A stretch of DNA of 64,000 nt from Vulcanimicrobiaceae bacterium (GTDB lineage Bacteria > Vulcanimicrobiota > Vulcanimicrobiia > Vulcanimicrobiales > Vulcanimicrobiaceae), in the NCBI GenBank assembly GCA_035938175.1, contig DASZHD010000046.1, positions 9,294 through 73,293 of the forward strand. Reading direction: 5' to 3'. Positions 6,723-63,594 of this stretch are shown in pieces. The position numbers and the translations under genes were made by a program. The notes below the pieces were generated by a model that had not been told where the DNA came from, did not search any database, and was given only the letters and a program-made list of their open reading frames with translations. The stretch's first letter is position 1. Every line of letters begins with the position of its first letter.

Positions 6723-8167
6723 GAGCGGTAAACGACCTCGGTTCGCATCCCGTCCATCATATGTATCTCGTTATGGCAATGCAACAGCCACCGTCCGGGC
6801 GGTGAATCCGCCGTAAAATGCCATGTTGCTGTCCCTCCATGCGCCCGCACCAGGGCCGTGTCCTTGGGGAGCGGCCTAAGCAGCGGTTTGCCGTCCACGC
6901 TCGTTAAACGAAAAACATGCCCGTGCAGATGCATCGGATGGTCCATATCCGTCGTGTTCTTGAAATGAATCGTCACGGCGTCGCCGCGTGTGACGAAAAT
7001 CTTCGGGGTGTGCGGATACGTTTTGCCGTTTATCGTCCACGCGTTGCTGCCGTAGGCGCCGCCCCCAAGTGTAAAGTTGTAGTCATGCTGAGGCGTCTTG
7101 TCATGCTGAGGCATCGAAGCACCCTGAGGCATCGAAGGGCCAACTCCCCCCGCCCCCTCGTACGTAAAGAACTCAACGCCTTCCAGGGTTTGCGGGCTCG
7201 CGGCGGGCGCCGCATTTTCGAAGCCCTCGGTATAAACGACGGCCGCCTGCTGATACGCGGTCGGTTCGCTGGAGAGACCTTGCAATAGCCAAGCACCGGG
7301 TTTTTGTACTTCGAACCACGCGTCGTACCGTTCGGCGACGCCTATACGCAACGCATCGACCGTCACGGGCGCTTCAAGACGGTTCCCGTCCGTGTGCGTT
7401 ACGGTCAGACGATGATCGGCCAGACGCACGTAACGCGTCTGCGTCGGGTTCGCATTGAGAACGCGCAAGCGCACGCGCTGTCCGACTTTCACGGGAAGTT
7501 TTTGCGTTGCCGGATACGACCGGCCGTTGATGCAATGCGCGACGTACGCAACTTCGTCGCCCATTTTATCGTTGGGCTCCATCTCGCGCATTTCCGGAGA
7601 ACCGATAGGATCCACCATCGGCGCGCCGCTTACGCCCATCATCGCCTGCTCGATCGTCGGCAAATTCGGCACGTCGTGAAAGACGAGCGCAAACTCCGCG
7701 TCGTAGTGCTCGTCGTTCGGATCTTCCACGACGATCAATCCGAAGAGCCCGCGCGGCAAGCCGCCGCCCACGTGATCGTGATACCAGCGCGTTCCGGCCG
7801 GCTGCGCGACGAAATCGTACAGAAACGAATCGCCGCTGGGCACCGGCGCCTGCGTAATATCTTCAACGCCGTCCATGCGGTTCGGAAGAATCATTCCGTG
7901 CCAGTGAACCGTAGCCGGTTTGCCGCTGGAGTTCACGAATTTCGCGCGCAACCGCTGCCCTTGCGCGACGCGAATGACCGGCCCCGGAATGCTGCCGTTG
8001 AACGCGAGGAGCGGATACTGCATGCCCGGCGCCGGCGAAAATGCAATCGGTGCTGCGGTTAGCGTGTAGTCCAGCGTGTCTTCGGCCAGCGCCCGCGCCG
8101 GCAGCCGCGGTACTGCGAGCGCGGCCATCACGCCCGCACTTCGCGCCAAGAAGACGCTGCGGCGCAT
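6719..8167 (-). CDS. Tat-exported multicopper oxidase
   Basis: All four copper-ligand motifs are present: HWHGM, WYHDHV, HPMHLHGH and HCHNEIHMMDGM. There is a twin-arginine leader (MRRSVFLARSAGVMAALAVP). I place the start at the internal ATG at 8167, where TAATG overlaps the upstream stop by 1 nt. Confidence 0.9.
   Translation of the reverse strand: MRRSVFLARSAGVMAALAVPRLPARALAEDTLDYTLTAAPIAFSPAPGMQYPLLAFNGSIPGPVIRVAQGQRLRAKFVNSSGKPATVHWHGMILPNRMDGVEDITQAPVPSGDSFLYDFVAQPAGTRWYHDHVGGGLPRGLFGLIVVEDPNDEHYDAEFALVFHDVPNLPTIEQAMMGVSGAPMVDPIGSPEMREMEPNDKMGDEVAYVAHCINGRSYPATQKLPVKVGQRVRLRVLNANPTQTRYVRLADHRLTVTHTDGNRLEAPVTVDALRIGVAERYDAWFEVQKPGAWLLQGLSSEPTAYQQAAVVYTEGFENAAPAASPQTLEGVEFFTYEGAGGVGPSMPQGASMPQHDKTPQHDYNFTLGGGAYGSNAWTINGKTYPHTPKIFVTRGDAVTIHFKNTTDMDHPMHLHGHVFRLTSVDGKPLLRPLPKDTALVRAHGGTATWHFTADSPPGRWLLHCHNEIHMMDGMRTEVVYRS
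7082..7142 (+). repeat. 49-nt repeat family copy inside the multicopper oxidase CDS
   Basis: gtcatgctgaggcgtcttgtcatgctgaggcatcgaagcaccctgaggcatcgaagggcc. It is read through in-frame on the minus strand as GPSMPQGASMPQHDKTPQHD. Confidence 0.8.
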
Positions 8168-13768: not shown

Positions 13769-13938
13769 GTCATGCTGCCGCGTGTCATGCTGAGGTATCG
13801 AAGCACTCTGAGGAATCGAAGGGCCCCGCATTGTCATGCTGAGGTATCGAAGCACCCTGAGGAATCGAAGGGCCCCGCATTGTCATGCTGAGGCATCGAA
13901 GCACCCTGAGGCAGCGAAGGGCCCCTCTCCCCTCGCAA
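13769..13938 (+). repeat. 49-nt repeat family, tandem array (one partial and three full units)
   Basis: Units start at 13769 (partial), 13784, 13833 and 13882, giving an exact 49-nt period. The consensus is gtcatgctgaggNatcgaagcaccctgaggaatcgaagggccccgcatt. Confidence 0.9.
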
Positions 13939-20020: not shown

Positions 20021-20105
20021 GTCATCCCGAGGTATCAGCGTGTCATCCCGAGGTATCCGCTTGTCATCCTGAGGTATCGAAGGACCCTGAGGTATCGAAG
20101 GGACC
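20021..20105 (+). repeat. 49-nt repeat family, divergent copies
   Basis: gtcatcccgaggtatc is repeated three times and ends in ctgaggtatcgaaggaccctgaggtatcgaagggacc, directly after the metK stop. Confidence 0.8.
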
Positions 20106-24014: not shown

Positions 24015-24090
24015 TCCGGATTAGCTCAGTTGGTAGAGCAGCTGACTGTTAATCAGCGGGTCGCTGGTTCGAGTCCAGCATCCGGAGCCA
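24015..24090 (+). tRNA. tRNA-Asn (anticodon GTT)
   Basis: 76 nt. Acceptor stem tccggat/atccgga, D-loop agctcagttggtagagc, anticodon loop ctGTTaa, T-arm ggttcgagtcc, encoded CCA. Confidence 0.95.
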
Positions 24091-24093
24091 TTG

Positions 24094-24130
24094 AAGCAGA
24101 AGCCCTCGCAATGCGGGGGCTTCTGCTTTT
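24094..24130 (+). terminator. intrinsic terminator after tRNA-Asn
   Basis: 12-bp perfect stem (aagcagaagccc at 24094-105 with gggcttctgctt at 24117-128) followed by a T-run. Confidence 0.7.
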
Positions 24131-24435
24131 ATCGTTGCGATGCTCGGACGTAGAAACCGTCAGGGTGAGCAGCGCTGCGTGGCAGCGCGTGTCGAACCAA
24201 GAGTCCATCATCCTCCACTCACGGCGGTGCCGTTTTTGGCTTGGCGCAGCGCCGCCGCCTTTCTGTTGCACGGGTAGCGGGGATTTGCGCACGGGAAGCT
24301 GCCAAATCGTTCGCGATTCTAAGTTATCCTACTGCATTTTGAGATTGACACTGTCCCTTACTTTGTACGCAATCGGCTAGCCGCACGCGTGGAAATATAA
24401 TTTCGTCTTACAGTGTAGTCCTCGCGCCTTTACAC

Positions 24436-24756
24436 TTACGGACCATACTGTGCTTTCGCCCTTTTCGGGTGAATAGGCGCGCACAGCACAATAGAACACG
24501 ATGAGTGCTGTTGCAGCAGATCACCCCAATCAAGACCCGAAAGGAAATATTTCCGACCGATACGATGTATCAAAGGCCTACTTGTATGCAACAAGCGTTC
24601 GAACGACTCCGAATCACCAGTTCTTGCATGCCCGATTAGCCGGTACGTTTCGTAAAGCGCTTGGAATGCGCGGCGGTCACTTGCCCGACTTCCGAGTAAG
24701 TGCAAAGTCGCGTCAATGGTGGATGATGCAAATTGCGAGTACGTAGTGTTGTTCAC
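24436..24756 (-). pseudogene. truncated sigma-70-family factor (region 2 fragment only)
   Basis: HARTGDSESFERLLHTSRPLIHRIGRKYFLSGLDWGDLLQQ resembles sigma region 2.1-2.2 (GD..AFE.L....RPL......KYF..G.D.EDLIQEG). The ORF ends about 20 codons later, without regions 2.4, 3 or 4. Confidence 0.4.
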
Positions 24757-25016
24757 ATGCTTTTCGCAACCGTCTTGAGCGACGACCAGTCCCGTTCTCG
24801 CAGCTTCAGCGGCAACTACTCGGCTCTACAGCCACATCGTCCGGTAACTTCCGGTTGCTCATCCTATGATGGGCATTCGTGGCTTGGATTTGGCGCAGTC
24901 ACGGTCGTTTTTCGGCGGCCGCTCGCTTTGCAGGTCAACGTCTCTGAGGTTTGCTCGCGACCCGGTAGGGTTGCTATTTTTCGAGAAGTATATCAAATGC
25001 GTTTCAGCATAGTACA

Positions 25017-25418
25017 ATGAACCGGTCCGAAAACATGCGGCGGATTCGAAGTCGCAATACCGTACCCGAGCTGATGCTCCGAAAGGCGCTTTACGCGCGA
25101 GGGTTGCGCTATCGGTGTCACGTTAGGTCACTTCCGGGCAGTCCAGATATCGTATTCGCTCGGCAGCGCACTGCGCTATTCGTGCATGGATGTTTTTGGC
25201 ACCGCCATCCGGGTTGCCGAGCTTGCACGACACCTCGGACGAATTCGGACTTCTGGAACGCAAAGTTTAGAGAGAATGTTGCCCGCGATCAACGAGACCT
25301 CGCTTTACTTGCTGCATCAGGTTGGAAAGTTATGATCGTGTGGGAGTGCGAGATCGCTTCGCGGCCATTTGCGTGCGCCGATAGGATCATCGAAGAACTC
25401 CTTCGTCGAGAACCGTAG
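25017..25418 (+). CDS. vsr: very-short-patch repair endonuclease
   Basis: 133 aa. NMRRIRSRNTVPELMLRKAL, PGSPDIVF, ALFVHGCFWHRH, NSDFWNAKF..N..RD and IVWECE are classic Vsr motifs. Confidence 0.9.
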   Translation: MNRSENMRRIRSRNTVPELMLRKALYARGLRYRCHVRSLPGSPDIVFARQRTALFVHGCFWHRHPGCRACTTPRTNSDFWNAKFRENVARDQRDLALLAASGWKVMIVWECEIASRPFACADRIIEELLRREP

Positions 25419-25811
25419 CTCATAAAGCGCACCTCAGGTGCCCTGCGTTATGAGCGGCACGCACAAGGAGCATGGTAGCGATTACCGAACTACGTCAGCT
25501 CGGCGCCACTTGTAAGGCGGCGCTGAATCGCGGCGTGTTCGTGGCTGAGGAATTCACATTGTATTTCTACCGTCACGCGGGGAGTGCTCTGCGATCTGTT
25601 TTACGGATCGTTGTTGAACCGCGTAACGCTGTCGAAGGGACCGCATCTGAATTTCAGTGTGTTCGGCGGCACGAATGGGATCGGTGTAATAACAGCTGGC
25701 GATGAAGGCGCCTTCGCTCAAGCATGAAGCAATCCAAGAGCGTAATACGCTGAACATAAATGCTTTGCGGCATGCCAGCCGTATGGCACACTTCCGCGCT
25801 AGCCTTGGGAT

Positions 25812-27257
25812 ATGAAGGTGCCATCTAACGCGACGGGCTTATCGCTGCTGGGCGATCGGGCTGAGGCAGATCGCATCATCGAACAGGCCGTCCGGTCGTG
25901 CCAGACCACACGGGGCAATGGTTCGTATGATCCGCGCGATGCGGAACGCGTCTATTTTCGCATGACTCGTCGGCCGGGCCATCCCCGGTCCATAGGACGA
26001 GCGTTAACTCAAATAGCTCGTCGTTTTTGCAAAGAAGCTGAAATCTCGTGTGCCGCGTGTCCTATTCGCCAGTTTTGCGAAACGGGCCGCTCGAATAGCA
26101 ATGAGCATCCCGCTGTCCCTTTCATCGACCTCTTTTGCGGTGCAGGGGGGTTTTCTTTAGGTTTTGAGGCGCTTGGATTTACGCCAGCGCTCTCAATTGA
26201 CCACGACCCATCGGCTGTGAGGACGTATAACTTTAATCGCCTGACGTCCGGCGGTCACGGCATACTTGCTGACATAGAAGACGTCGCTTACGACACAAGT
26301 CTTAGAGGCTTGGCGCCGCTAATCATAGGCGGTCCACCCTGTCAGCCATTCAGCATGGCAAATCGACAGCGCGCAGCATCCGATCAACGTGATCGCTTAA
26401 TCGATGTTTTCCTGCACGCAACTATGACGTCTCAAGCGAAAGTCTTCGTAATTGAGAATGTTGCGGGCGTAAGGCAACGCGAAGAAGTGATCAAGTCCTT
26501 CGGCGAGCGGGTCGGGTATGTCATCTTTCAGCGCGAAATTAATGCTAGTGATGTCGGTGTTCCGCAAAACCGCAACCGTACGTTTATTTTTGGCGTCAAA
26601 GCAAAAACGTGCGCTCAGCATAGCGAAGTAGAGGCGACATTTCTAAGGTTACTTTCCGAGCAGAGGCTGCTCCTAAAGACAGCACTGCGCGATGCCATAC
26701 GTGACCTCCCGGCGTTGAGAGCACCTTATCAGAGTAATGCGACAGTAGCTGATTCCGAGACGGTGGGCTTTGCCGTGGCGCCGTTTCATGGCGGCACGTT
26801 GTCGCAATACACCGAGATGTTGAATGGCGGCAAAAATCCTCAATTTCTTTTTAATCACCGGGCGAAGTATTTGAACGGCCGTGACCGAGAGATATACCGG
26901 CTGTTACGCCCTGGAGAGAAATCTGACGCGGATAGCATAGCACATATAATGCCGTACAAGCATCGCGCGCATCTATTTCGCGATAAATTTTATCGACTTA
27001 AGTGGACCGACGTGAGTAAGACGATCACTGCGCATATGTACTACGATTGCCACATGTATATTCATCCGACTCAAGCGCGCGGCCTAACACCTCGTGAGGC
27101 CGCGAGGATACAGGGCTTCCCTGATTCATACTTCTTTGTGGGTCGTCCAAATGAGTGGTATCGGCAGATTGGGAATGCTGTAAGCCCGATCGTTGCGGGG
27201 GAGGTTGCTCGCATTGCGCATGGGCTACTTGCGCTTTTCGGGGAAACTGATCGTTAA
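25812..27257 (+). CDS. DNA (cytosine-5)-methyltransferase with ~100-aa N-terminal extension carrying an EndoIII-type Cys loop
   Basis: Motif I FIDLFCGAGGFSLG, motif IV GGPPCQPFS, motif VI ENV, motif VIII QNRNRTFIFG, TPREAARIQGFPD, and motif X QIGNAVSP. The N-terminus carries CKEAEISCAACPIRQFC. Confidence 0.9.
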   Translation: MKVPSNATGLSLLGDRAEADRIIEQAVRSCQTTRGNGSYDPRDAERVYFRMTRRPGHPRSIGRALTQIARRFCKEAEISCAACPIRQFCETGRSNSNEHPAVPFIDLFCGAGGFSLGFEALGFTPALSIDHDPSAVRTYNFNRLTSGGHGILADIEDVAYDTSLRGLAPLIIGGPPCQPFSMANRQRAASDQRDRLIDVFLHATMTSQAKVFVIENVAGVRQREEVIKSFGERVGYVIFQREINASDVGVPQNRNRTFIFGVKAKTCAQHSEVEATFLRLLSEQRLLLKTALRDAIRDLPALRAPYQSNATVADSETVGFAVAPFHGGTLSQYTEMLNGGKNPQFLFNHRAKYLNGRDREIYRLLRPGEKSDADSIAHIMPYKHRAHLFRDKFYRLKWTDVSKTITAHMYYDCHMYIHPTQARGLTPREAARIQGFPDSYFFVGRPNEWYRQIGNAVSPIVAGEVARIAHGLLALFGETDR

Positions 27258-28255
27258 TGCGAGCATTCGACGCATTCTCAGGAATCGGAGGGTTTCACGA
27301 GGCACTCCGTAGCTCGCGCAATCTCAAAGGCGTTATGGTGCGCGCAGCGGTAGATTCTGATCCCGCATGCAAATTGGTATATCAACGTTCATTCGGTGAA
27401 CACGGCATTTTTTTTAACGATATATTCGACATCGGTATAGGAGACCGTGAGGGTCGCGACTTGGGCGCTGTTGATTTGATAATGGCCGGTTTTCCGTGCC
27501 AACCGTTCGCGAACATTGGGAGGAGGGGCGGGATGGATGACCCTCGGGCGCGGACGTTCCTTCATCTCGTGGACATTCTAAAGACGTATCAACCGAAGTA
27601 TGCCGTGCTAGAGAACGTCCAAAAACTCTCGAGTTTTGACAGTGGCGGAACGTATCGGGCAGTTTTGACCGCTTTAACTGCTGCCGGCTATCACGTGGAG
27701 CCTTTGGATCTTTGTGCGTCGGATTTCGGTGTTCCGCAACAGCGTAGGCGACTGTATTTTGCCTGCGTTCATAAGCGTTTTAGAAAACTACCCTTTAAGC
27801 ATCGGCTTCCTCGGCGCCATGGCCGGTTTCGCACTACGTGGCATCTATTGGAAAAAACTATGCCTGACCAGCATATTGTACCGCCTATGACTAGCCGCAC
27901 CGTTTTCAAGCGGAACACGCGATGGCAAGGTGACTTGCAGATAGATCGTGTGATCGCCCGGCCGATATGCGCCACGATGGGCAAGTGGCATCGTGCAAAT
28001 CAAGACAATTACTACTCCGAATCTTACGTCTTCGGTCCACAACCAACGGGTTGGGGAGGTGGCCGTGATTACAGGCACGGCGAGCCAGTGCGCCGTATAA
28101 CGCCGCTTGAAGGCTTGCGACTCCAAGGGTTTCAAGACGATTTCCTACGCGCATTCGAGGGAATATCAAATACAACGGCCTATCGACTTATCGGGAACGC
28201 CGTAGCGGTCCCCGTAGCGCAATCTGTGCTTGAATGGCTGCTCGCCAATGACTAG
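27257..28255 (+). CDS. DNA (cytosine-5)-methyltransferase (second, shorter)
   Basis: AFDAFSGIGGF, GFPCQPFA, ENV, QQRRRLYF, TPLEGLRLQGFQDDF and LIGNAVAVPV. TAATG start/stop overlap with the upstream methyltransferase. Confidence 0.9.
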   Translation: MRAFDAFSGIGGFHEALRSSRNLKGVMVRAAVDSDPACKLVYQRSFGEHGIFFNDIFDIGIGDREGRDLGAVDLIMAGFPCQPFANIGRRGGMDDPRARTFLHLVDILKTYQPKYAVLENVQKLSSFDSGGTYRAVLTALTAAGYHVEPLDLCASDFGVPQQRRRLYFACVHKRFRKLPFKHRLPRRHGRFRTTWHLLEKTMPDQHIVPPMTSRTVFKRNTRWQGDLQIDRVIARPICATMGKWHRANQDNYYSESYVFGPQPTGWGGGRDYRHGEPVRRITPLEGLRLQGFQDDFLRAFEGISNTTAYRLIGNAVAVPVAQSVLEWLLAND

Positions 28256-28276
28256 CTTGGAATTGCTCATAGTACG

Positions 28277-29743
28277 ATGGACGTTGTAGAGACAAGCGCC
28301 GGCTTCGACATCGCCCTTGCTCGGTTACGGGCGGCAAATTCCAATGTAGAAGATGAAACCTTCAAATGGGATGACGTTCGCGAAATTCTATGGCTTCAGC
28401 TCACAAACACGGATGTCGTGGCTTCCCGCAAGACCACGGATAGGAGTCACGCTACATCCATCGAGATAACAGACGGCGCAAATACTTCCCCGAACAAGGT
28501 TCGCGATTTCTTCCCAGCTCTCGCATTCAGCGAGAGATACCCTGAGCGACGAACCGCCGTACCGATTCGTTGGCGGCGCGAAAACGTAACCGGGCTGACG
28601 GAGCGTTTTGGCCAACCGAAGAGCGAGGAACCTGGTTGGGATTTAGGCACATGTCAGATACGTCGTACAAGGAACCGCAACGAGACCCAGAACCCCGGGT
28701 TGATGATCGCATACGAAAACGATATGCACGATCTTCGCGCTGCTCTACAAGAACACGACGCGCTTGTATTTGTACGGCGCGGCGGTGTACTCTCTTATGA
28801 GGTGTTCGGAATTGCACCTGAGCCACCATTCGACCCCATTCTAAACGGCAAACGGATCTTCGTTCGTGATCCGAGTCCAGGCGATCGCCGACAAGTATGG
28901 ACTTACAAAGATGCAAGGTTGCGATCGCTGGTCTCGTTCCTGGAGCAACCGGCCGGCCCGCAGGCGCAATCTCAAATTGATCGGGTTGTCGCAATCGCGA
29001 AAGAGCATGGGTCCACTGCAATTATCGCTCTCGCTGGCGTACCAGGTACCGGGAAGACGTACGTTTCCGAGCGAGCGGCAATCGCTATAGCGGGCGACCG
29101 GAGCCGGGTAGAAGTTGTGCAGTTTCATGCCGCATACGCGTATGAGGAATTTGTAGAAGGCATTACCTTTGAAGGCGAGCCGAAGAGCGGGTTGCTTCTA
29201 AGGCTAAATGAAAAGGCTGCACAAGACCTTAGCAATACGTACGTACTTGTCATTGAAGAGCTAACTCGCGCCGATCTCAGCGCGGTGTTAGGCGAGCTCC
29301 TGACGTACATTGAGTATCGCGACCGCTTCGTGACGCTTCCGTACAGCGGTAAAAAGTTTCGGTTGGCGCCCAACGTTATAGTGCTTGCGACCTATAACCC
29401 CACGGATCGTTCGGCCCTTGAGGTGGACGCAGCACTGCTGCGCCGGCTACGCATCATAGACTTTTTGCCGTCGTACGATCTTGCGTTTGAGATACTGAAG
29501 TTTAATGGCGTCGATGACGAAACCGCCACGAAAGCAGCTTCCGTCATGCTGGTGCAGAAGGCTGACCCTCGGTGGGCTTTTAGAATGCCCTTTGGGCATG
29601 GAATTTACGCGGACGTTCGTGGCGTTAACGACCTACAAGACCTTTGGGAGCAACGTATCAGCCGGTTCTTGCATGGGCCGTGGGAAGATCATCCGTATGC
29701 CGCCGATATCACTGCCGCTTATCCGTGGCGTAAAAATGCATGA
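28277..29743 (+). CDS. McrB-like AAA+ (GTPase-type) restriction subunit with uncharacterised ~230-aa N-terminal domain
   Basis: Walker A AGVPGTGKTY, Walker B/McrB-type VLVIEELTRAD, VIVLATYNPTDRS..VDAALLRR (AAA_5/McrB signature). Confidence 0.85.
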   Translation: MDVVETSAGFDIALARLRAANSNVEDETFKWDDVREILWLQLTNTDVVASRKTTDRSHATSIEITDGANTSPNKVRDFFPALAFSERYPERRTAVPIRWRRENVTGLTERFGQPKSEEPGWDLGTCQIRRTRNRNETQNPGLMIAYENDMHDLRAALQEHDALVFVRRGGVLSYEVFGIAPEPPFDPILNGKRIFVRDPSPGDRRQVWTYKDARLRSLVSFLEQPAGPQAQSQIDRVVAIAKEHGSTAIIALAGVPGTGKTYVSERAAIAIAGDRSRVEVVQFHAAYAYEEFVEGITFEGEPKSGLLLRLNEKAAQDLSNTYVLVIEELTRADLSAVLGELLTYIEYRDRFVTLPYSGKKFRLAPNVIVLATYNPTDRSALEVDAALLRRLRIIDFLPSYDLAFEILKFNGVDDETATKAASVMLVQKADPRWAFRMPFGHGIYADVRGVNDLQDLWEQRISRFLHGPWEDHPYAADITAAYPWRKNA

Positions 29744-30980
29744 CCAAGAATTGCCTAAAGCTGTGTTGCAGATGCGGGAGTGGGGACGGCGCGATATATC
29801 GACTGCCGACGCATTAACTTTTATTTCCGATGGCGCGTTCGGGCTATTATCTTCGCAAAATGTGTTGCAGGTTGTACGCGATCGGCGTGGCATCGCTTTG
29901 CGGGCATTCAGCTATGTGGGTCGATGTGACATCAACGACAAAAAGATCATAGTTGAACCGCGACTTTCCTGCAGCTACGACCCGCTTATCAAAGAGCTTG
30001 ACGCGTTAGATGCAAAGGCGGTCAATGGAGTACTCGAGCAGCTTTCGCTCGGTAGTACCGGCCGGTCTTTCATTGAAGCATTCATTTCAGCGGCTCAAAG
30101 CTATTTCAGCATTGGGCGGCTGAATCGCTACACTGCGGTGGATGAAGCTAGCCGGTTCGCGAGAGGAAAGATAATTACTCCGGCTACAATACGGCTTCGA
30201 GCCCGCGGGCGGAGCAACGTTGTCGTTACGCGGCGACGGACCCTGTCCCCCCCGACGCTGGCTCATAGTGCGCTGCGTCAGGCGCTTCTCTTGGCTGAGC
30301 AGCAGTTACTGAATCATGACAACCAAGATTCTCGCATCATAGAGCTGCGATCTCTAAGCCGGCTGTTGCCGATCGCGATGCCTACGTCGCTGAACCTTTT
30401 GCTGGACGCATGCGATGAAGCTCAAAAAGCATCCGCACCGTACATACGCGATCTTTTTAAGATCGTAAAGATAATTTTGCTGGGCGGTGCCGACAGTTCT
30501 CTCTCGGTACCGATCATCCAACTTGATCGCGCCATGTTCTTCGACATGGCGAAAGTAATAGAAAATGCGGTGCGCAGAATAGTAGCTCGTTCACTCTCAT
30601 CCCATCGCGTGTTGGATGGTAACGTGCATAAGCAGCCTTTCTTGCAGAATCCCATCAGTCTGGGGGAACCAGATATCGTTATCTATGATAGATCTAGGCT
30701 TATTGCCTTGATGGATGTAAAAGATAAGATCGTGGTGTCGGCGTCACGGGACGATGTATATCAGATATTTAGCCACTGTGTAGGTGCCGGTGCGAACCTT
30801 GGAGTCCTGATATTCATTGGCGAGGATTATGAAAGCCCCAAGCTAATTGGCGCGTGGGACTCACGGATATCCCTATTGCAAACCACCATTCGTCCCAACG
30901 AACCGGAGCGAGATCTGCGTCTAATGCTTTCGCAGCTAGCTATCGCGCGCGAAGAATCCTTTGCCACTAATAGGGCCTAG
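29736..30980 (+). CDS. McrC-like PD-(D/E)xK nuclease subunit
   Basis: McrC N-domain pattern (SYVGRCDINDKKIIVEPR), RGKI, and a C-terminal nuclease core GEPDIVIY...LMDVKDK...DDVYQIFSH. I use the ATG at 29736, which overlaps the McrB-like stop by 8 nt. The longer ORF-track start lies inside the upstream gene. Confidence 0.8.
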   Translation: MHDQELPKAVLQMREWGRRDISTADALTFISDGAFGLLSSQNVLQVVRDRRGIALRAFSYVGRCDINDKKIIVEPRLSCSYDPLIKELDALDAKAVNGVLEQLSLGSTGRSFIEAFISAAQSYFSIGRLNRYTAVDEASRFARGKIITPATIRLRARGRSNVVVTRRRTLSPPTLAHSALRQALLLAEQQLLNHDNQDSRIIELRSLSRLLPIAMPTSLNLLLDACDEAQKASAPYIRDLFKIVKIILLGGADSSLSVPIIQLDRAMFFDMAKVIENAVRRIVARSLSSHRVLDGNVHKQPFLQNPISLGEPDIVIYDRSRLIALMDVKDKIVVSASRDDVYQIFSHCVGAGANLGVLIFIGEDYESPKLIGAWDSRISLLQTTIRPNEPERDLRLMLSQLAIAREESFATNRA

Positions 30981-31510: not shown

Positions 31511-31686
31511 TGAGTGCCCCCGCTGATATGTGGAATCTGGGGCGTGAGCGTCGAAAGGAAAACCACATGCGCAAGTCCCAATTCACCGAAGCTCGGGTCG
31601 TCGGCCTTCTCGCAAAATCGACAGACCTTAAAATATTCCACCTTCCGTGCGATGGGATCTCCTACGCTGATGGCTACCGTCGGTAA
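31511..31686 (+). mobile_element. decayed IS3-family (IS407-like) left end with truncated orfA
   Basis: A 39-codon ORF at 31567..31686 encodes MRKSQFTEARVVGLLAKSTDLKIFHLPCDGISYADGYRR, resembling the HTH N-terminus of IS3/IS407 OrfA (MRKSRFTEEQI.G.L.........DLCRKHGIS.ATFY.W). The upstream tgagtgcccccgctg begins with the TG(A) typical of IS3 inverted repeats. No orfB follows. Confidence 0.45.
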
Positions 31687-32018: not shown

Positions 32019-35000
32019 TCACTTCTTTTCGGCCTCTTGCACGTACGCACAGAGAAGATTAACGAGGGCCATCTGCTCGGGAGTACGGCAACGAATTTGC
32101 AGTAGACGCGGTGAGCAGAAGAGCACGCTTAGACATTGCGCGCGCGAGATGGCGACGTTGAAGCGGTTCTTCTCGAAGAGAAATTCCATATTGCGCGGCA
32201 GATCTTCACCGCTCGACGTCGCCATGGAGTACAGCACAATTGGGGCCTGAAGCCCCTGGAATTTGTCGACCGTGCCGACCGCGATATGTCCGAAGCCTGC
32301 CGCTCGAAGGCGCTGCTTGATTAAGACGCGCTGTGCGTTGTAGGGCGACACGATGAGAATGCTTGACTCGGTAATTGGGCGCCCGGATTCGGTACGCGTT
32401 TTGTAGGTGCCGCGCATGAGCAGCCTCACCTCTCTTACGATCGCTGCGGCTTCCTCGACAGAGGACCGGCGGTTGCCTTCGTGATCGATCGGTCTCCAAC
32501 GCAGCCCACTTCCCGCAAGACCGGGCGAAGTAACTGCATTAATCTCGTTCCCCTCGGCCGGCCTAAGACGGCCTTCATAGACTGCGTCAGAGATGAAGCC
32601 GCAAATCGACGGATGCATCCGCCAGGAGTGCAGCAAAAAGATGCCGCGGTCTTCAGGAATAGTCGCATGATCGCCCAAGAGATGCTGAAGAATGGACCGG
32701 CTGATGCCTGGCGGATGCTTTCCTTGTGAGACTTGTGCAAGCTGGAGAGGGTCACCGAGTAGCACGACACTTCTCGCGGCCCGTGCGCAGGCGATCGCGT
32801 CGGCGATAGGAAGTTGACCGGCCTCGTCGATTATCAACACATCGAAGGCGTTCGCCGCATTGCCCAATGCGAAAAGCCAGGGCGTACCCGAAACCAGTTC
32901 ATACTGCTCCTTGAGAGCATCGTCTGACTTCTTTTGATTAACGACTAACGCTCTTTCCCCGAGCGCCGACACGTATTGATCCTCGTCGTCGGTGTATTTG
33001 TGTGCGCCCCGGAAAACGTGTGAATCCTCGACCGCCGCTTTTTCCACGGCGGCTACGAGGTTGTGCGCTGCCTTGTGGCTGCGCGCCAGCACGCCAACAC
33101 GCTTACCGGCTTTCAAGAGCTCTACGATCGCGCGACCGCCCGTCGTACTCTTCCCAGTTCCGGGCGGTCCTTGTACGACGAGATAGCTGGAATCGAGTTC
33201 GAGAACTGCCTTCGCGAGGGATTGCCCATCGACGTGCGCCGGCTGAATGGTAGTGCCTGGCTGGTGGCCCTTCATCCGAGGAAATGCCATAAGCAGCATA
33301 TCCACGATTGCTGGGTGCTCGTTTTGGAGTCTACCGTCGATATAGAGCCGTGCGATATCGGCGAGAGCCTGGCGTTGGGGACCGCCGTCAAACGGTTTGG
33401 GAACCAGGGCGCGTAGCGCTGCATGATCCTCTTGCGGCCACCGGCGAAGTTGGAGTGTCCGAGTCTCATCATCGAGACTGACGAGCTCCCCGGCGCTCTT
33501 CATGGTATCTGGATCGTGAACGTGGGACCCGACGACGATGCCGTGCTGTTGTTCCGGAAAAGAAAACGTGTACGTCAACTTACGTTTGCCGGCCACCTTG
33601 ATGGGTTCAATTTCCGGGCACCAGTTGAGTTCGCCGATACATTCGTGATCAAATTCCGCGAGTTCGTCGGCGTTGCGACAGCGATGGAAGTACTCCCACC
33701 ACGATGGCTTCGCTTCGCTGCGATGGTAGTCGATTAGGTTTGCAAGATACCAGCGAAGTCGTTCGTCATCTGATAGCGCCCCCAGAGCAGCGAGATCGGC
33801 AGGCGGTTCTAGTCCAGCCAGAATCTGCTCGCGAAGCTCGCGCGTCGCGGCATTCTCTGCGCGTTTTTCCTCGCTCGGCGGCTTAGAGGCGTCGGGTACG
33901 AACCAGGGAAGATCGATTTTTTGGTCACGCTGCAATTGTTCGCGTCGTTCGAGAAGCCAATTGTGGAGGTGAAATGTCGAGCGGCAATCCTCATCGTTGT
34001 AGTGTCGGATCATCTCTAGGATCGAAGCGTCTCGGCGGTCTAGCCACTCTTCGAACAAGAGAATCGAGTCATCGCCGCGCTTAAGGTCTGCCGTACGATG
34101 GAAGTCGTAGAATGGCTCCAACTTCTTGATCGAGTAGCTCTCTTGTGAGATGCGAAGGCCTTGGCGCACTACCGTATAGAGATCCACAAAGACCTGAGCG
34201 CGCAGAAGGTCGTCGAATTCGTCAACGAGCGTGTTGTAACGAGTCGTAAGACGGCCTAAGGCCGTCTTTTCGTAGCTCGCATAGTGATAGACATGCATAT
34301 TGGGATATTTCTCGCGCCATTCCATGACGAAGGCAAGAAAGTCGGTTACTGCCCCTCTCTGCTCGACGAGCGAATGCGCCCAATAGGCGACGTACCGATC
34401 CTCTGCCGGCATGTAGACGCCGAACAAATACTCCAGGCCGGTCTCGGGTGCGTAGTAGGGGTCCCCCTCCATATCAAAGTAGAGATCGCCCTCGTCGCGC
34501 TCTGGAAGGAGCGAGAACCCGCGCTTTGGATCGCTCGGAAGGATCCTGAAATGGTACGCATCTTTTCCGGTTACGCCGGCCTCGATGGACTTGCGTTGCA
34601 GCACTTGTAGTTGGGCTTGCTGCGCCAAGTTATCAAAGGTGCCTGGATTGAAGCCGGTTGGTCGTGTTCCATTGGCATTGGCGAGCTGCGCAACCGTCGT
34701 GATTCCATCGGCATTGAGTTTGGCGATCTGATCGCGGCGCATCCAGGCGACAAGGCTGAGATGGTCGTCCTTGCGTCGTCGTTGGTCACAAACCGGGTCC
34801 CACTCACAGAGTAAGCAGTGCTCAACCTTGTCCGGATAGGCTTGGAGGACTTCGATATTCTGCAAGAACCATTTCCGTAGATGACGGTAATACGCCAAAT
34901 AGTCGTGTATGGCAAAGGACCGCTCCTCACCGCTTCCGAGCGCGACCATCATGTGTCTGGGAAGAAGCCCGTCTTGGAGGCGGCTGAGGTGCTCGCTGTA

Positions 35001-35465
35001 CGAGCAGAGTTGAATAAGGAAATACGCCTTCGCTGAGCGCGCGAGCTTCGTGTCGATGACTTCGTAGCTGAAACCCGAGGGGGTCCGTTCATCTTGAATT
35101 CGTCGAAGAAAATCAGCGCGCCCGAGAAATGCACCGTCAAAGAAAGTGGGCTGATAGATATAGGAAACGCCGCCTTCCATCGCTCGGCGTGTAGCTTGAT
35201 CGGCCGCGATCAGACCGTTGATGGATCGATCCGCAAGACGGGCAGGGAACTCGTGCACCGAGGCGTCGCTGCGCTTGAGCCGATCCAAGAATCGTTGCTC
35301 GTGTTCTTCGCCTTTGCGTCCTAGCAGGTCCGACGTCGGATCGGATGGTGGCGCCGTCAATCCACCCAATGCGACCTGACGCTGAAGCTCGCTGAGGTGG
35401 GGACACTCCAGAAAATTGTTGAGGTCCGTCGCTGAAAAGATCAGTCGACCATCGGCCCGCTGCAG
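32019..35465 (-). CDS. fused Cas4/RecB-like PD-(D/E)xK nuclease + RNase-H-like domain + SF1 (DNA2/Upf1-type) helicase
   Basis: Nuclease core GRADFL...YEVIDTKLA...YFLIQLCSY with a Cys cluster CLLCEWDPVC. An RNase-H-like segment follows (YFDMEGDPYY...HVYHYASYEKTAL). The helicase has Walker A QGPPGTGKST, VLIIDEAGQL, LLGDPLQL, SPYNAQR, VDKFQGLQAPIV and NVAISRA. The 5' end is extended past the ORF-track TTG (35369) to include the in-frame DLNNFLECPH. Confidence 0.85.
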   Translation of the reverse strand: MQRADGRLIFSATDLNNFLECPHLSELQRQVALGGLTAPPSDPTSDLLGRKGEEHEQRFLDRLKRSDASVHEFPARLADRSINGLIAADQATRRAMEGGVSYIYQPTFFDGAFLGRADFLRRIQDERTPSGFSYEVIDTKLARSAKAYFLIQLCSYSEHLSRLQDGLLPRHMMVALGSGEERSFAIHDYLAYYRHLRKWFLQNIEVLQAYPDKVEHCLLCEWDPVCDQRRRKDDHLSLVAWMRRDQIAKLNADGITTVAQLANANGTRPTGFNPGTFDNLAQQAQLQVLQRKSIEAGVTGKDAYHFRILPSDPKRGFSLLPERDEGDLYFDMEGDPYYAPETGLEYLFGVYMPAEDRYVAYWAHSLVEQRGAVTDFLAFVMEWREKYPNMHVYHYASYEKTALGRLTTRYNTLVDEFDDLLRAQVFVDLYTVVRQGLRISQESYSIKKLEPFYDFHRTADLKRGDDSILLFEEWLDRRDASILEMIRHYNDEDCRSTFHLHNWLLERREQLQRDQKIDLPWFVPDASKPPSEEKRAENAATRELREQILAGLEPPADLAALGALSDDERLRWYLANLIDYHRSEAKPSWWEYFHRCRNADELAEFDHECIGELNWCPEIEPIKVAGKRKLTYTFSFPEQQHGIVVGSHVHDPDTMKSAGELVSLDDETRTLQLRRWPQEDHAALRALVPKPFDGGPQRQALADIARLYIDGRLQNEHPAIVDMLLMAFPRMKGHQPGTTIQPAHVDGQSLAKAVLELDSSYLVVQGPPGTGKSTTGGRAIVELLKAGKRVGVLARSHKAAHNLVAAVEKAAVEDSHVFRGAHKYTDDEDQYVSALGERALVVNQKKSDDALKEQYELVSGTPWLFALGNAANAFDVLIIDEAGQLPIADAIACARAARSVVLLGDPLQLAQVSQGKHPPGISRSILQHLLGDHATIPEDRGIFLLHSWRMHPSICGFISDAVYEGRLRPAEGNEINAVTSPGLAGSGLRWRPIDHEGNRRSSVEEAAAIVREVRLLMRGTYKTRTESGRPITESSILIVSPYNAQRVLIKQRLRAAGFGHIAVGTVDKFQGLQAPIVLYSMATSSGEDLPRNMEFLFEKNRFNVAISRAQCLSVLFCSPRLLQIRCRTPEQMALVNLLCAYVQEAEKK

Positions 35466-35499
35466 AAGATGCTCCTTTCACCCACGCTATTTGTCGGAC

Positions 35500-35754
35500 T
35501 CATCGTATCCTACTCTTTGCTTCCGCCAACCGTGTGACACTCGGGCAGCGATAATCGTCCCTTTGGGCATACGAGACTATTCCGAGGATGCCGCTCGGTA
35601 TCCGTGTGATGGTCGGAGAGTATACGACGACTCGCGATAGAACGTCGATGTCACGGCCCAGGGTTGTAACGGCGTGTTGCTGGTTGCCCATCAGGCCTGC
35701 ATCCATTAGTAGGAGTGAGCCATAAACCTGTGGTGACACGGATTCGCCATTCAT
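35500..35754 (-). CDS. hypothetical small protein immediately upstream of the nuclease-helicase
   Basis: 84 codons from the internal ATG, on the same strand as the helicase and ending about 35 nt before its putative start. No motif recognised, so coding status is uncertain. Confidence 0.25.
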   Translation of the reverse strand: MNGESVSPQVYGSLLLMDAGLMGNQQHAVTTLGRDIDVLSRVVVYSPTITRIPSGILGIVSYAQRDDYRCPSVTRLAEAKSRIR

Positions 35755-36183
35755 CGGTGTCTCCCAGGTCCATGGGTCGCGTAGTGTACTGCGCATGACA
35801 CTTGTGACTCATTGTTACACAGTGGCGATGCCCGCTATTTCCAGTAGTGGACTGCACGCTCGCAGAACATACCGCCGCATCAGGCGATTTGCATGGCAAC
35901 TCCGCAGCAGCGGTTATGGACGCTGGCCGCCAAGGCCATTCCGCCCTCACCAAAGACGCCGCGCACTGCTGCTGGTTACGAAGGGGCTCGCGCTGAAGTG
36001 TAACGTCTACTGCGCGCGCCAACGAGTGCGGCCGGCTTCGAATATCTTACAAACGCCCTCGTCGAATCGCGACGTAGTCGGACGCACCGAAAAACGCGAT
36101 TTTGCATGGTTTCACCGCGCGGCACGTCCGGTGTAACCTCCCGCCGCCAACCCTCTGACACCACCGCATGCCAAAATATCCTC

Positions 36184-36672
36184 ATGGAAGAAGACAATGC
36201 CCGCAACCGGCGGGCGCTCAAAGCGCTTATCAATGCCGGTGGCTTCATGGCGCATCGCTTTGGCGAATCCGGCTTCGTGATGCCGTTCAGCGGTAGACTG
36301 CGCGACTGGCATATTCGCGCGAACCTTTGCGGTGGGTGGCTCGCAATGAGCACGTATGTTATGGAGTTACCCGACAAAGGCCCGACGCGCTCCGGACTCC
36401 TGGAGCGGATGCTCGAACTCAACGACGTCATCAGCGTCGGAAAATTTAGCAAGCACGAGCAAGCGCTGCATCTCGACGTGGAGTACCGCCAAGAACATGT
36501 GGACGCAAGCGCGTTTAGCGGTCTTGTCGGTCTCGTGCACTCGGTTTGCGAGCAGTACTATCCCGAACTCGTCCGCATCGCAACGGGCGATACTGCGCTG
36601 CAGCAACTGGAGGTGGCGTTCCAGCGGCCCGCGCTCGGCGCCGAATCAAAGGAGCGCCGGAAAGCGGACTAA
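36184..36672 (+). CDS. hypothetical protein (possibly YbjN / type-III-chaperone-like fold)
   Basis: About 162 aa from the internal ATG. The general pattern (LLERMLELND...GKFS...ALHLDVEY) is reminiscent of the YbjN family. It is convergent with the WYL regulator and overlaps it by 4 nt. Confidence 0.4.
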   Translation: MEEDNARNRRALKALINAGGFMAHRFGESGFVMPFSGRLRDWHIRANLCGGWLAMSTYVMELPDKGPTRSGLLERMLELNDVISVGKFSKHEQALHLDVEYRQEHVDASAFSGLVGLVHSVCEQYYPELVRIATGDTALQQLEVAFQRPALGAESKERRKAD

Positions 36673-37628
36673 CGGTACTCCGCGCAAATCTTCTCCGCGA
36701 TCGCTCGCGCGTGCTCAACCGCCTGAGGCGGCGCACACACCTTCGCGTCCGCGCCAAAGCCAAAAGCCCACCGCACCACCTCGCCGACGTCGCTAACGGT
36801 AAACGTCATCGTGGCGGAGCCGTCGTCGTGCAACTGCGTTTCCTGCGCCCGCTGCCATTCGCGCGACGTGGCCGAAGGCGCAATCGCCGGCGATAGCCAC
36901 ACCGAGACGCGCTGCTCGCTCTTGCCCTGAATGAAGCCGAGCACGTCGTCGTTCAAATACTTCTGCGGAATCGGCTGCGGCGAAAATGATCCGGCTCGTT
37001 TTATCGCACCCTGGATCGCGTCCAACGCGTAGTATTTCCAGTCGCGCGTGCCGCCCGCATCGCGAGCGAGCAAATAGTAGCGTCCCGAACGCATCACCGC
37101 GCATCCCGGCTCGACGCGCCGCTCTTTGCCCGAGTAACGGAATGTTACGCGCGCGTTGTTCGCCCATGCCGCCTGCAGCTCGTCGAAGGCCTCGGCCACG
37201 TGCGTTCCCTCGCGCAGCGCGGGCTGCAGAAAATGCAGGAACCGGCGTTCCTCGCGCGGCTCGTCGGCCTGGATCGACTGCAACTGCGCCTCCACCGGTG
37301 CTCCCAATGCGCGCCCGGCGTCGCGAATCAGCGTCTGCAGCGCGCGGCTGCTCTTGTCGATCCCGGTCGGGCGCTGGTCGAAATCCAGCAGGCGCACGCG
37401 GTCGTGTTCGCTCTTCTCGGCAATGCGAAAGCCGGCGCGCTCGCCGATTTTCCGCAATTCCTGAAGGTCGCGCAGAACCGTGCGTTCCGATGTCCCGTAT
37501 TCTTCGCACATGCGCTCGAGCCGGATAAATTTGTTGCGCACCAGTTCCAGCAGAATGCGGATTTTGCGCTCCGTCGCCGTGCTCGGCTCCCCCGATGGCC
37601 GGCCTTTGCCCGAGATCTTCTTTGCCAT
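36669..37628 (-). CDS. WYL-domain transcriptional regulator (HTH + WYL + WCX-like C-terminus)
   Basis: N-terminal wHTH (ERMCEEYGTSERTVLRDLQELRKIG) and a WYL domain (VTFRYSGKERRVEPGCAVMRSGRYYLLARDAGGTRDWKYYALDAI). I prefer the start MAKKISGKG at 37628. Confidence 0.8.
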   Translation of the reverse strand: MAKKISGKGRPSGEPSTATERKIRILLELVRNKFIRLERMCEEYGTSERTVLRDLQELRKIGERAGFRIAEKSEHDRVRLLDFDQRPTGIDKSSRALQTLIRDAGRALGAPVEAQLQSIQADEPREERRFLHFLQPALREGTHVAEAFDELQAAWANNARVTFRYSGKERRVEPGCAVMRSGRYYLLARDAGGTRDWKYYALDAIQGAIKRAGSFSPQPIPQKYLNDDVLGFIQGKSEQRVSVWLSPAIAPSATSREWQRAQETQLHDDGSATMTFTVSDVGEVVRWAFGFGADAKVCAPPQAVEHARAIAEKICAEYR

Positions 37629-37691
37629 GTGCGGGTATTGAACTCGCGCTCGCGCCAAGCCTACGGCACGCGCGCACGGTAGGCTCGCCCT

Positions 37692-49694: not shown

Positions 49695-49725
49695 AAGAGC
49701 GGCGATTGTGCGCCGCTCTTTTTTA
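49695..49725. terminator. bidirectional intrinsic terminator
   Basis: Perfect 10-bp stem (aagagcggcg at 49695-704 with cgccgctctt at 49711-720) and a 6-nt loop. There is a T-run on the plus strand and a T-rich tract on the minus strand. It sits between convergent stops at 49674 and 49739. Confidence 0.75.
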
Positions 49726-49738
49726 ACCGGTTACGGCT

Positions 49739-50137
49739 TTACGCCGCTTTCTTTTTGCGTCCGCCTTTTTTGCGGCCGCCCTTTTTGCGTCCGGCCTTCT
49801 TGCGTCCGCCTGCGGATGCTGCTGATTTCTTGCGTCCGCCCTTTTTGCGTCCGGCTTTCTTACGACCGCCCGCGGCTTTCTTGCGTCCGCCCTTCTTGCG
49901 TCCGCCCGTCGATTTCTTGCGTCCGCCTTTCTTGCGTCCGCCGGTCGATTTCTTACGTCCGCCTTTGCGTGCACCGGTCGATTTCTTGCGTCCGCCTTTG
50001 CGTGCGCCCGTCGATTTCTTGCGGCCGCCCGCGGCTTTACGGCCCGCGGATTTCTTACGGCCGCCTTTGCGGCGCCCGCCACGACGTCCCGATGATTCTT
50101 CCATCGTTCCGCCGTTTTGCATCATGTCGGAATCCAT
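49739..50137 (-). CDS. highly basic GGRKK-repeat protein (histone H1 / Hc1 / AlgP-like)
   Basis: 132 aa with a short acidic N-terminus (MDSDMMQNGGTMEESS) followed by about 20 repeats of GGRKK(S/A)(T/A)G. Lys+Arg exceed 40% of residues. The underlying DNA is tandemly repetitive. Confidence 0.7.
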   Translation of the reverse strand: MDSDMMQNGGTMEESSGRRGGRRKGGRKKSAGRKAAGGRKKSTGARKGGRKKSTGARKGGRKKSTGGRKKGGRKKSTGGRKKGGRKKAAGGRKKAGRKKGGRKKSAASAGGRKKAGRKKGGRKKGGRKKKAA

Positions 50138-50341
50138 TCTTCCTCCCTTCGTCCCCGGGGACGAACTCGAGATGGTGGACAGCGCAATTTAGCGCTTTGT
50201 GCGCATCATAAGTAATTTTCGCAAGAATTGCAAATCGAGGGTGTATTTGCTGTTGACGAAGACTTCACAAATGGTGTATCGCGCGCACGCGCGTTGTCCT
50301 CAATTTGCCCCCGGCTTGACCGCGGGGGTATACTAGGGCCC

Positions 50342-63591: not shown

Positions 63592-63594
63592 TCT

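Follow-up and report, generated by a model that had tools for sequence, protein, structure and literature searches.

We analysed a 64,000-nucleotide stretch of DNA from a Vulcanimicrobiaceae bacterium (assembly GCA_035938175.1, contig DASZHD010000046.1, positions 9,294 to 73,293; hereafter the window, in whose numbering coordinates are given unless stated otherwise), and in particular a minus-strand gene at 32019-35465 whose product unites an iron-sulphur (Fe-S) nuclease, an RNase-H-fold domain and a superfamily 1 (SF1) helicase in one chain. As judged from its retained residues, the gene encodes a catalytically intact, DNA2-like nuclease-helicase. The protein is a full member of the known and catalogued COG2251/TIGR03491 family, and not a new kind of system. 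On balance, its likeliest role is the DNA-damage-induced processing of ends or flaps, in repair or recombination, and not a dedicated anti-phage function. This role is best supported because the gene tree is congruent with taxonomy and the base composition native, because orthologues in the window's clade (Eremiobacterota) are often syntenic with rpoC, and because most of these orthologues stand behind a predicted LexA box that a gene for a DnaQ-like exonuclease shares. A first-pass annotation had proposed a new single-gene defence system, from which most of the evidence leads away: the family is already catalogued, the gene has no conserved partner, and its neighbours are mostly unrelated to defence.

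Domain architecture of the nuclease-helicase

The open reading frame (ORF) of about 1150 residues noted in the first-pass annotation is real, given the start codon discussed below, and the protein divides into the following parts.

32019 to 35465, minus strand: nuclease-helicase coding sequence, 1148 residues and stop codon (translation; Pfam, NCBIfam and PADLOC scans; homologues; AlphaFold2 model).
34761 to 35465, minus strand: PD-(D/E)xK nuclease of the RecB/Cas4/AddB type, residues 1-235 (C21...C217-X2-C220-X5-C226; D118, D138, K140, Q152...Y156).
34506 to 34760, minus strand: helical linker, residues 236-320, with a putative helix-hairpin-helix-like segment, DQIAKLNADGITTVAQLA, and a long helix (AlphaFold2 secondary structure; conserved columns).
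33921 to 34505, minus strand: RNase-H-fold domain PF13482, residues 321-515 (D331, E333, D428, Y489 and D493, a conserved DEDDy-type set).
33231 to 33920, minus strand: helical bundle, beta-barrel and stalk preceding the motor, residues 516-745 (AlphaFold2 secondary structure; Foldseek).
32022 to 33230, minus strand: SF1B helicase core, RecA1 and RecA2, residues 746-1148 (Pfam AAA_30/AAA_11/AAA_12; sequence matches in the PDB; Foldseek).

The anatomy given by the first-pass annotation, a Cas4/AddB-type Fe-S nuclease with a TM0106-type RNase-H-like module and a DNA2/Upf1-type SF1 helicase, was right, and all the motifs that it quoted are present and conserved across 118 sequences (the window protein and 117 homologues), on which residue conservation was judged throughout. 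These are ECPH (with C21), GRADFL (D118), EVIDTK (D138 and K140), QLCSY (Q152 and Y156) and HCLLCEWDPVC (C217, C220 and C226) in the nuclease, YFDMEGDP (D331 and E333) in the middle domain, and GPPGTGKS (766-773), DEAGQ (880-884), GDPLQL (904-909) and VDKFQG (1066-1071) in the helicase. Nearly all motif residues are invariant, D138 and D880 being conserved in at least 90% of the sequences. The four cysteines C21, C217, C220 and C226, invariant throughout, follow the iron-staple pattern, and Fe-S binding is predicted. The Pfam model PF12705 (PDDEXK_1) matches the N-terminal ~240 residues in six of 12 family members, with a best value of 1.4e-8 and 0.0024 for the window copy.

The middle domain is recognised by RNase_H_2 (PF13482) at residues 328-504 (1.3e-26; score 94 bits, cut-off 22; aligned over 1-164 of the 165 model positions), and its residue set predicts a 3'-5' exonuclease. 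When the domain was modelled alone (pLDDT 89) and submitted to Foldseek, the matches were weak but all of the RNase-H fold, the highest TM-scores falling to 3'-5' exonuclease domains (Pol nu 0.49, T7 DNA polymerase 0.47, ERI3 0.43); MrfB scored 0.34 with E 1.5. In the helicase, AAA_30, AAA_11 and AAA_12 match at residues 750-1118 (AAA_12 E 8e-26); RecA1 holds Walker A, DEAGQ and GDPLQL, and RecA2 holds VDKFQG, R1101 and R1108. A sequence search of the PDB found solved relatives (IGHMBP2, DNA2, Upf1 and Sen1) for the helicase part only, and PDB profile searches with the nuclease and RNase-H-fold domains returned no meaningful matches, the nuclease profile missing DNA2 too.

AlphaFold2, run on the 118-sequence alignment, gave a model of mean pLDDT 92.6 and pTM 0.88. 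The top match of this model in a Foldseek search of the PDB was mouse DNA2 (5EAN; E 2.8e-29), aligned over ~1300 columns and the whole protein, followed by IGHMBP2, Upf1 and Sen1 over ~650 columns. Because these ~650-column alignments to IGHMBP2 and Upf1 exceed the RecA core alone, the modelled segment at residues 516-745 may resemble the 1B/1C accessory domains of Upf1-like helicases.

The start codon and integrity of the window gene

35463 to 35477, minus strand: Shine-Dalgarno sequence AAGGAG (35472-35477), 6-nt spacer and CTG start codon (35463-35465) (sequence; N-terminal alignment).

The minus-strand frame is uninterrupted from 35480 down to the stop codon at 32019-32021. Its first canonical start is a TTG at 35369, which would give 1116 residues; the coordinates 32019-35465 therefore presuppose a rare CTG start. 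In alignments with first 16 and later 117 homologues, the conserved N-terminus begins 32 codons upstream of that TTG, the homologues having M, V or L at the position of the CTG codon, and two in-frame stop codons lie directly upstream of the CTG. An identical public protein (P0001) is annotated from the TTG and lacks the 32 conserved residues, including one Fe-S ligand. The 81%-identical homologue at locus L001 has AAAGGAG-N6-TTG at the equivalent position, and most other homologues start with ATG there. The true start of the window gene is thus likely to be the CTG with its perfect Shine-Dalgarno sequence.

It could be argued that the window copy is decaying or silent, an ATG or TTG having mutated to CTG and a LexA-controlled leaderless promoter having gone, so that little or no full-length protein would be made. 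The CTG itself, which replaces the TTG of the closest homologue and the ATG of most others, can be read in this way, as can the absence of the predicted SOS box described below and the loss of invariant D14 and Fe-S ligand C21 that initiation at the next canonical start would entail. However, the 3.4-kb frame is unbroken and keeps every invariant catalytic residue, AAGGAG stands at ideal spacing before the CTG, and bacteria do initiate at CTG, if rarely; we consider decay highly improbable.

Relation to known families and systems

Membership of TIGR03491 (COG2251, "TM0106 family RecB-like putative nuclease") is given by a score of 233.5 bits against a curated cut-off of 97.45 (E 4.8e-69), with residues 12-504 aligned to model positions 3-462 of 462. 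The 120 best homologues all share the nuclease/RNase-H/helicase architecture, and homologues of 1130-1200 residues are named "TM0106 family RecB-like putative nuclease" in NCBI records. The domain order is identical to that of the long form of the family, with C-terminal AAA_11/AAA_12, and there is no structural difference. The COG2251 fusion of a Cas4-like DUF83 domain with frequent tandem AAA domains was described in 2014 by Majorek et al. (PMC3985635), where PF13482/COG2251 was assigned to a clade related to PolB exonucleases and 3'-5' exonuclease activity was predicted.

DNA2 (5EAN) shares with the window protein the order of an N-terminal Fe-S PD-(D/E)xK nuclease, a beta-barrel and stalk, and an Upf1-like SF1B helicase. 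Identity is nevertheless only 14-15%, the global TM-score 0.36-0.38 and the rmsd ~25 Å, the nuclease match is undetectable by sequence, and in the window protein ~285 further residues, an RNase-H-fold DEDDy domain and a helical linker, separate nuclease and helicase; it is probably not a DNA2 orthologue. Bad of Geobacillus stearothermophilus, to which it can be likened by description, likewise joins its Fe-S iron-staple nuclease to a central domain and an SF1B helicase. Bad is a DNA2-like monomer of ~1200 residues with a sporadic distribution, and acts as a 5'-3' motor on single-stranded DNA (ssDNA) with ssDNA endonuclease activity (PMC7430649). Its central domain was reported to have no detectable homology (PMC7430649), whereas that of the window protein is a clear PF13482 domain. 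A 'second class', from Mycobacteria and Rhodococcus, is also noted in that paper (PMC7430649) and may be the long-form COG2251 family, a copy of which we found on a Rhodococcus plasmid.

The first-pass annotation had also likened the protein to Nhi. Both are single polypeptides that join a nuclease to an SF1-type helicase and are encoded by a stand-alone gene; unlike Nhi, the window protein has three catalytic modules, including an Fe-S nuclease and an RNase-H-fold domain. The likeness did not survive a PADLOC search, in which nine families matched at E<=0.01, all by partial matches to the helicase (MkoA, MkoC, PDC-S37, DpdJ, RecD, Hhe, PDC-S68 and mad8 among them), and Nhi, for which the PADLOC library presumably holds a model, was not one of them. 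Membership of Nhi, Hna or another known defence system was rejected on these helicase-core matches. The NCBIfam anti-phage models ProA, Hhe and PLuB scored far below their cut-offs for the window protein. A Cas4 role in CRISPR adaptation was likewise set aside, the window containing no CRISPR-like array and the neighbouring genes no cas Pfam domains; an Rfam scan of the window matched only tRNA.

AddAB, RecBCD and AdnAB resemble the window protein by analogy only, in coupling an SF1 motor to a nuclease of the RecB family that has the AddB-type CX2CX5C Fe-S staple, and the functional analogy extends to DNA-end processing with dual repair and anti-foreign-DNA biology. The window protein differs from them in being a single chain, in having an Upf1-like SF1B and not a UvrD-like SF1A motor, and in its extra DEDDy domain, and no Chi-recognition element was identified in it. 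The MrfA-MrfB (YprA-YprB) pair of mitomycin repair also combines a DnaQ-superfamily 3'-5' exonuclease, MrfB, which we take to be a carrier of PF13482, with a helicase. There, however, the two are separate proteins, the helicase belongs to SF2, and MrfB is of the DEDDh type and in structure only weakly like the middle domain. MrfB has been described as a DnaQ-superfamily (DEDDh) repair exonuclease that acts with a helicase (PMC11194089).

Distribution, inheritance and linkage to rpoC

More than 120 full-length homologues with 48-81% identity were found in public data, many of them from Eremiobacterota metagenome-assembled genomes. A scan of one genome per species gave at least 566 genomes that carry relatives, and these include Eremiobacterota, Solirubrobacterales, Gaiellales, Acidimicrobiia, Chloroflexota, Proteobacteria isolates and a cyanobacterium. 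In a neighbour-joining tree, sequences cluster according to phylum or order, with the window copy inside the Eremiobacterota clade, whose copies have mostly been inherited vertically. The G+C content (GC) of the gene minus that of its flanks has a median of 0.001 (SD 0.022; 77 loci); the window copy and L001 lie ~3-5 GC points below the genomic background.

On 11 Eremiobacterota contigs, rpoC is found 0-7 kb away from the gene, and both belong to a conserved block comprising a TonB receptor, a two-component system, an HD protein, a MalT-like regulator, the nuclease-helicase gene and rpoC. A conserved housekeeping locus, which the first-pass annotation had named as the finding that would tell against its own proposal, is therefore largely what the window's clade presents, in this block and in the predicted LexA box described next.

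A palindrome upstream of the Eremiobacterota genes

Upstream of the gene in the Eremiobacterota clade is a 16-bp palindrome, TGCCA-N6-TGGCA, of which the commonest form is TGCCAGGCRTATGGCAC. With at most one mismatch and within 200 nt upstream, the box was found in 26 of the 43 loci of this clade (19 of them perfect) and in 0 of 46 loci of other phyla, with a modal start 39 nt before the start codon. In box-bearing promoters a TANNNT hexamer ends ~6 nt before the ATG, which would imply leaderless mRNAs with the palindrome over the -35 region; in these apparently leaderless promoters, that looks like the position of a repressor site. The identical box stands ~39 nt before six genes for DnaQ/RNase_T-like exonucleases (~190 residues), three of which are directly upstream of the nuclease-helicase gene, and before a family of six genes for ~180-residue proteins that are transcribed divergently from the nuclease-helicase gene in rpoC-linked loci.

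A scan of metagenomes with a 17-mer taken from the nuclease-helicase promoters gave 120 loci (L088-L207), 18 of which are nuclease-helicase promoters. The 17-mer also lies 40 nt (L089) and 105 nt (L197) before lexA homologues, both of which carry the Pfam domains LexA_DNA_bind and Peptidase_S24 and are 37% identical to E. coli LexA, and it precedes one ssb gene (L151) and one C5 methyltransferase gene (L131). Across loci, at least 44 nuclease-helicase promoters have the box. Since SOS boxes are classically recognised by their presence before an autoregulated lexA and before ssb, the palindrome is probably the LexA (SOS) box of the Eremiobacterota lineage, with TGCCAGGCRTATGGCA as the candidate LexA-binding sequence.

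Two other explanations of the palindrome were rejected. A sigma-54 promoter (TGGCAC at -24) was dismissed by eye, as the spacing to the -12 GC varies and the upstream half-site is equally conserved, and an IS200/IS605 end was dismissed as sole explanation by the fixed spacing before a vertically inherited gene, lexA and ssb. Mobile elements do bear the box: seven of the 120 loci have it before TnpB/IS605-type genes (L106, L108, L173, L195, L198, L176 and L205) and several others before DDE_3 (IS630-type) transposase genes, the distance to the start of these genes being 34-44 nt, and in L153 it precedes a gene for a LAGLIDADG-type endonuclease. The box-preceded transposase and TnpB genes suggest SOS-controlled insertion sequence (IS) elements in the same lineage.

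Genomic neighbourhoods and the case for defence

When all ORFs within 10 kb on either side of 83 loci were clustered, no neighbour family occurred in more than eight loci, and the gene therefore has no obligate partner. The 132 immediate neighbour proteins carry 127 different Pfam families, mostly unrelated to defence, the most frequent being MFS, DEAD/Helicase_C/ResIII, SNF2, SpoIIE, WYL and RmuC. The settings vary accordingly, from metabolic or signalling genes (L084 and L216) to toxin-antitoxin modules of the RES-Xre and PIN-PhD types (L002) and a defence-like island at L001 with GmrSD/SLFN_AlbA_2, WYL, HATPase_c_3 and SNF2 genes. In the window, the neighbours on either side of the gene are the following.

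25017 to 25418: Vsr.
25812 to 27257: first C5 methyltransferase (Dcm).
27257 to 28255: second C5 methyltransferase (Dcm).
28277 to 29743: McrB-like AAA_5 protein.
Ending at 30980: McrC-like protein.
36106 to 36672, plus strand: YbjN-like ORF, 188 residues, between the WYL gene and the nuclease-helicase gene and convergent with the former (ORF clustering).
36669 to 37658, minus strand: HTH-WYL-WCX regulator, 1.2 kb upstream of the nuclease-helicase gene and on the same strand (Pfam: WCX 6.7e-15, WYL 6.6e-9, HTH; PADLOC: WYL 2.8e-26).

The first five constitute the adjacent restriction-modification (R-M) system that the first-pass annotation had correctly recognised, in an order that we take to be the LlaJI-type layout; neither the McrB-like nor the McrC-like protein of the window had a PADLOC match at 1e-5. 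The last two occupy the upstream region that had been described as non-coding. The YbjN-like ORF clusters with ORFs from L001, L007 and L008, of which that of L001 carries PF10722 (YbjN), and itself matches YbjN weakly (E 0.036).

Such surroundings would suit a stand-alone, WYL-regulated anti-phage or anti-plasmid enzyme, one that the WYL protein would repress until infection and that would then recognise invading DNA at its free ends or replication intermediates and shred these with both nuclease domains. Consistent with this, a block of lower GC that follows a tRNA-Asn contains the window copy, next to the R-M genes, and L001 and L002 have the defence-like and toxin-antitoxin company listed above. 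A few immediate neighbours match the defence models ZacC, DpdE, ZorD, DrmD and BrxH, and McrB-like or Dcm genes occur within 10 kb in about eight of the 83 loci. Bad, too, always neighbours a Type III-like methyltransferase (PMC7430649).

WYL genes are repeatedly met in the vicinity of family members, both in several phyla and on plasmids. Close homologues of the window WYL gene lie upstream and on the same strand in L007, L009 and L013, and further WYL genes are found near relatives in L001, L008, L052 and L067 and on Sphingobium and Pseudomonas luteola plasmids. WYL regulators include the defence repressors BrxR and CapW as well as LexA-independent activators of the DNA-damage response (PafBC and DriD), and because the class holds regulators of both kinds, the WYL link fits repair and defence alike.

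The TM0106 module was detected on 70 of 72,556 plasmids and in no phage. Plasmid copies lie near SNF2, VapBC, integrase and HNH genes (Roseomonas), near integrase, UDG and GIY-YIG genes (Rhodococcus), near a Ubl-E2-E1 operon (Phenylobacterium) and near dynamin-family and WYL genes (Pseudomonas luteola). On the conjugative Sphingobium plasmid pTomMM15c (L210, 6892-15019 of that locus), a divergent WYL gene comes first, and next to it the nuclease-helicase gene forms an apparent operon with genes for an SbcD-like metallophosphatase and a 'DNA repair ATPase'.

Against a dedicated defence enzyme stand the generic nature of the defence-model matches, which touch the helicase core only and do not include Nhi, the taxonomy-tracking tree and native GC, and the rpoC-linked synteny and predicted LexA box in the window's own clade. 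The absence of the module from phages and the preponderance of immediate neighbours unrelated to defence point the same way. Only two to three of the 12 loci with full annotation of 10 kb on either side contain defence genes, while several of the sampled plasmid loci are defence-like. We regard an enzyme dedicated to defence as unlikely, though more plausible for copies in islands or on plasmids, that of the window included.

Beyond these settings, five loci, which represent three phyla, have a PTP-SAK ('Swiss Army Knife') phosphatase gene directly next to that of the nuclease-helicase (L001, at 7999-9589 of that locus, L063, L065, L076 and L081). An ADP-ribosylglycohydrolase gene lies beside the PTP-SAK gene of L001, and ADP_ribosyl_GH is also found in two immediate neighbours at other loci. 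These neighbours hint at a link to the removal of nucleic-acid end modifications.

A proposed model for DNA-end processing

In the role that we favour, the processing of damaged DNA ends or flaps, the SF1B motor would load on ssDNA at an end or flap and, by analogy with DNA2 and Bad, move 5'->3'. Ahead of the motor, where those two enzymes also have it, the Fe-S iron-staple PD-(D/E)xK nuclease would cut the threaded strand, and the extra DEDDy RNase-H-fold domain would trim 3' ends. With a motor and two nuclease domains in one polypeptide, both strands of a DNA end would therefore be open to processing. In Eremiobacterota, the gene is often found in the rpoC block and usually stands behind the presumed LexA box, in company with the DnaQ-like exonuclease gene. 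The window copy has lost this box; it has a Shine-Dalgarno-led CTG start and a WYL regulator upstream.

Several observations weigh against this model. A literature search for TM0106, COG2251 and Rv1251c, the last of which we take to be a family member, returned no functional study. The exonuclease activity of the middle domain is predicted, Foldseek having given no significant match for that domain alone, and the CTG start of the window gene may mean very low expression or incipient decay. The reading of the palindrome as a LexA box draws on two lexA promoters and one ssb promoter, all on short metagenome contigs that are not taxonomically placed, and the scanned 17-mer was itself derived from nuclease-helicase promoters. 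Because the box also precedes genes of mobile or defence type (TnpB, IS630 and Dcm/R-M), SOS control would not prove a repair role.

Neither the window copy (near 35466-36100) nor L001 has the box at up to one mismatch, both having a Shine-Dalgarno-led 5' region in its place. Upstream of family members from all phyla, the canonical SOS and Cheo boxes (CTGT-N8-ACAG, GAAC-N4-GTTC, GTTC-N7-GTTC) and the mycobacterial RecA-NDp motif were not found, and a de novo search for shared palindromes found none in the Solirubrobacterales, Gaiellales, Chloroflexota/Acidimicrobiia and Proteobacteria clades. Finally, the window copy adjoins an R-M operon, L001 adjoins GmrSD, SNF2 and HATPase_c_3 genes, and some of the 70 plasmid-borne modules stand beside integrases, toxin-antitoxin modules, the Ubl-E1-E2 operon or dynamin-like genes.

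The mixture of SOS-box core loci in Eremiobacterota with mobile, defence-like loci elsewhere also raises the question of a dual role like that of RecBCD or AddAB. Here single-chain end resection for break repair would degrade linear foreign DNA as a by-product, and the plasmid and island copies would have been recruited for this second use. A single chain that carries a processive-type SF1B motor beside a nuclease and a 3'-5' exonuclease-like domain would allow for it, and so would the apparent operon of pTomMM15c, with its SbcD-like metallophosphatase, 'DNA repair ATPase' and divergent WYL gene. The proposal is, however, wholly inferential, and no Chi-like control or end-binding element was identified; a dual role seems to us distinctly improbable.

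A broader and more speculative proposal, doubtful as it stands, is that the long-form COG2251 proteins are an unrecognised class of single-chain, DNA-end-destroying machines under LexA or ssDNA-sensing WYL control. The WYL-linked island and plasmid copies, including that of the window, would then provide single-gene immunity against phages or plasmids, and the core copies break repair.

With at least 566 species genomes and 70 plasmids as carriers, this is a large family, and it joins three nucleic-acid-processing modules. Were end or flap processing after DNA damage to hold, it would provide the first functional clue to this family, as an SOS-controlled DNA2-like enzyme with a DnaQ-like exonuclease as regulon partner in an uncultured phylum, and the candidate LexA box could be used to predict the Eremiobacterota SOS regulon. 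If the minority reading of WYL-controlled defence were true of the mobile copies, these would represent a new type of defence with a DNA2-like mechanism. Culturable carriers (among them Methyloversatilis universalis, Malikia spinosa, Sphingobium and Rhodococcus aetherivorans with its plasmid pRaL13c) make both readings testable.

Other features of the window

GC falls from ~0.60-0.63 to 0.51-0.54 at the tRNA-Asn (24015-24090), and the low-GC block that follows it (24015-30980 with the tRNA gene) holds the R-M genes. The 'low-GC island' of the first-pass annotation is borne out mainly for these genes; the nuclease-helicase gene has a GC of 0.57 against 0.60-0.62 in its flanks. Neither an att repeat of the tRNA-Asn that would bound an island nor an integrase was found. 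A single perfect copy of the palindrome occurs in the window, TGCCAGCCGTATGGCA (25773-25788, plus strand), and the first C5 methyltransferase gene begins 39 nt after it, with the ATG at 25812, the spacing also seen at the nuclease-helicase genes of other Eremiobacterota; if the palindrome is indeed a LexA box, the R-M operon of the window would be SOS-controlled.

Between the R-M operon and the nuclease-helicase gene is ~1 kb without recognisable genes. The IS remnant proposed at 31-32 kb could not be confirmed by a Pfam match or a blastn match to plasmids. Its only trace is a 39-codon ORF (31567-31686, plus strand), whose first 17 residues, MRKSQFTEARVVGLLAK, we take to resemble the N-terminus of an IS3-family OrfA.

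The remainder of the window is ordinary chromosome, with genes for TonB-dependent receptors, AdoHcy hydrolase and a multicopper oxidase, and with topA. A 49-nt unit (TGTCATGCTGAGGAATCGAAGCACCCTGAGGAATCGAAGG...) is repeated in tandem between genes at 13783-13925, 63594-63828, 1809-1846 and 20021-20078; these repeats resemble a dispersed, REP-like element. A dense but imperfect tandem repeat with units of 15-36 nt (TTTCTTGCGTCCGCC...) spans 49751-50071, shortly before topA (50228-52480), and falls within or beside an ORF at 49708-50211.

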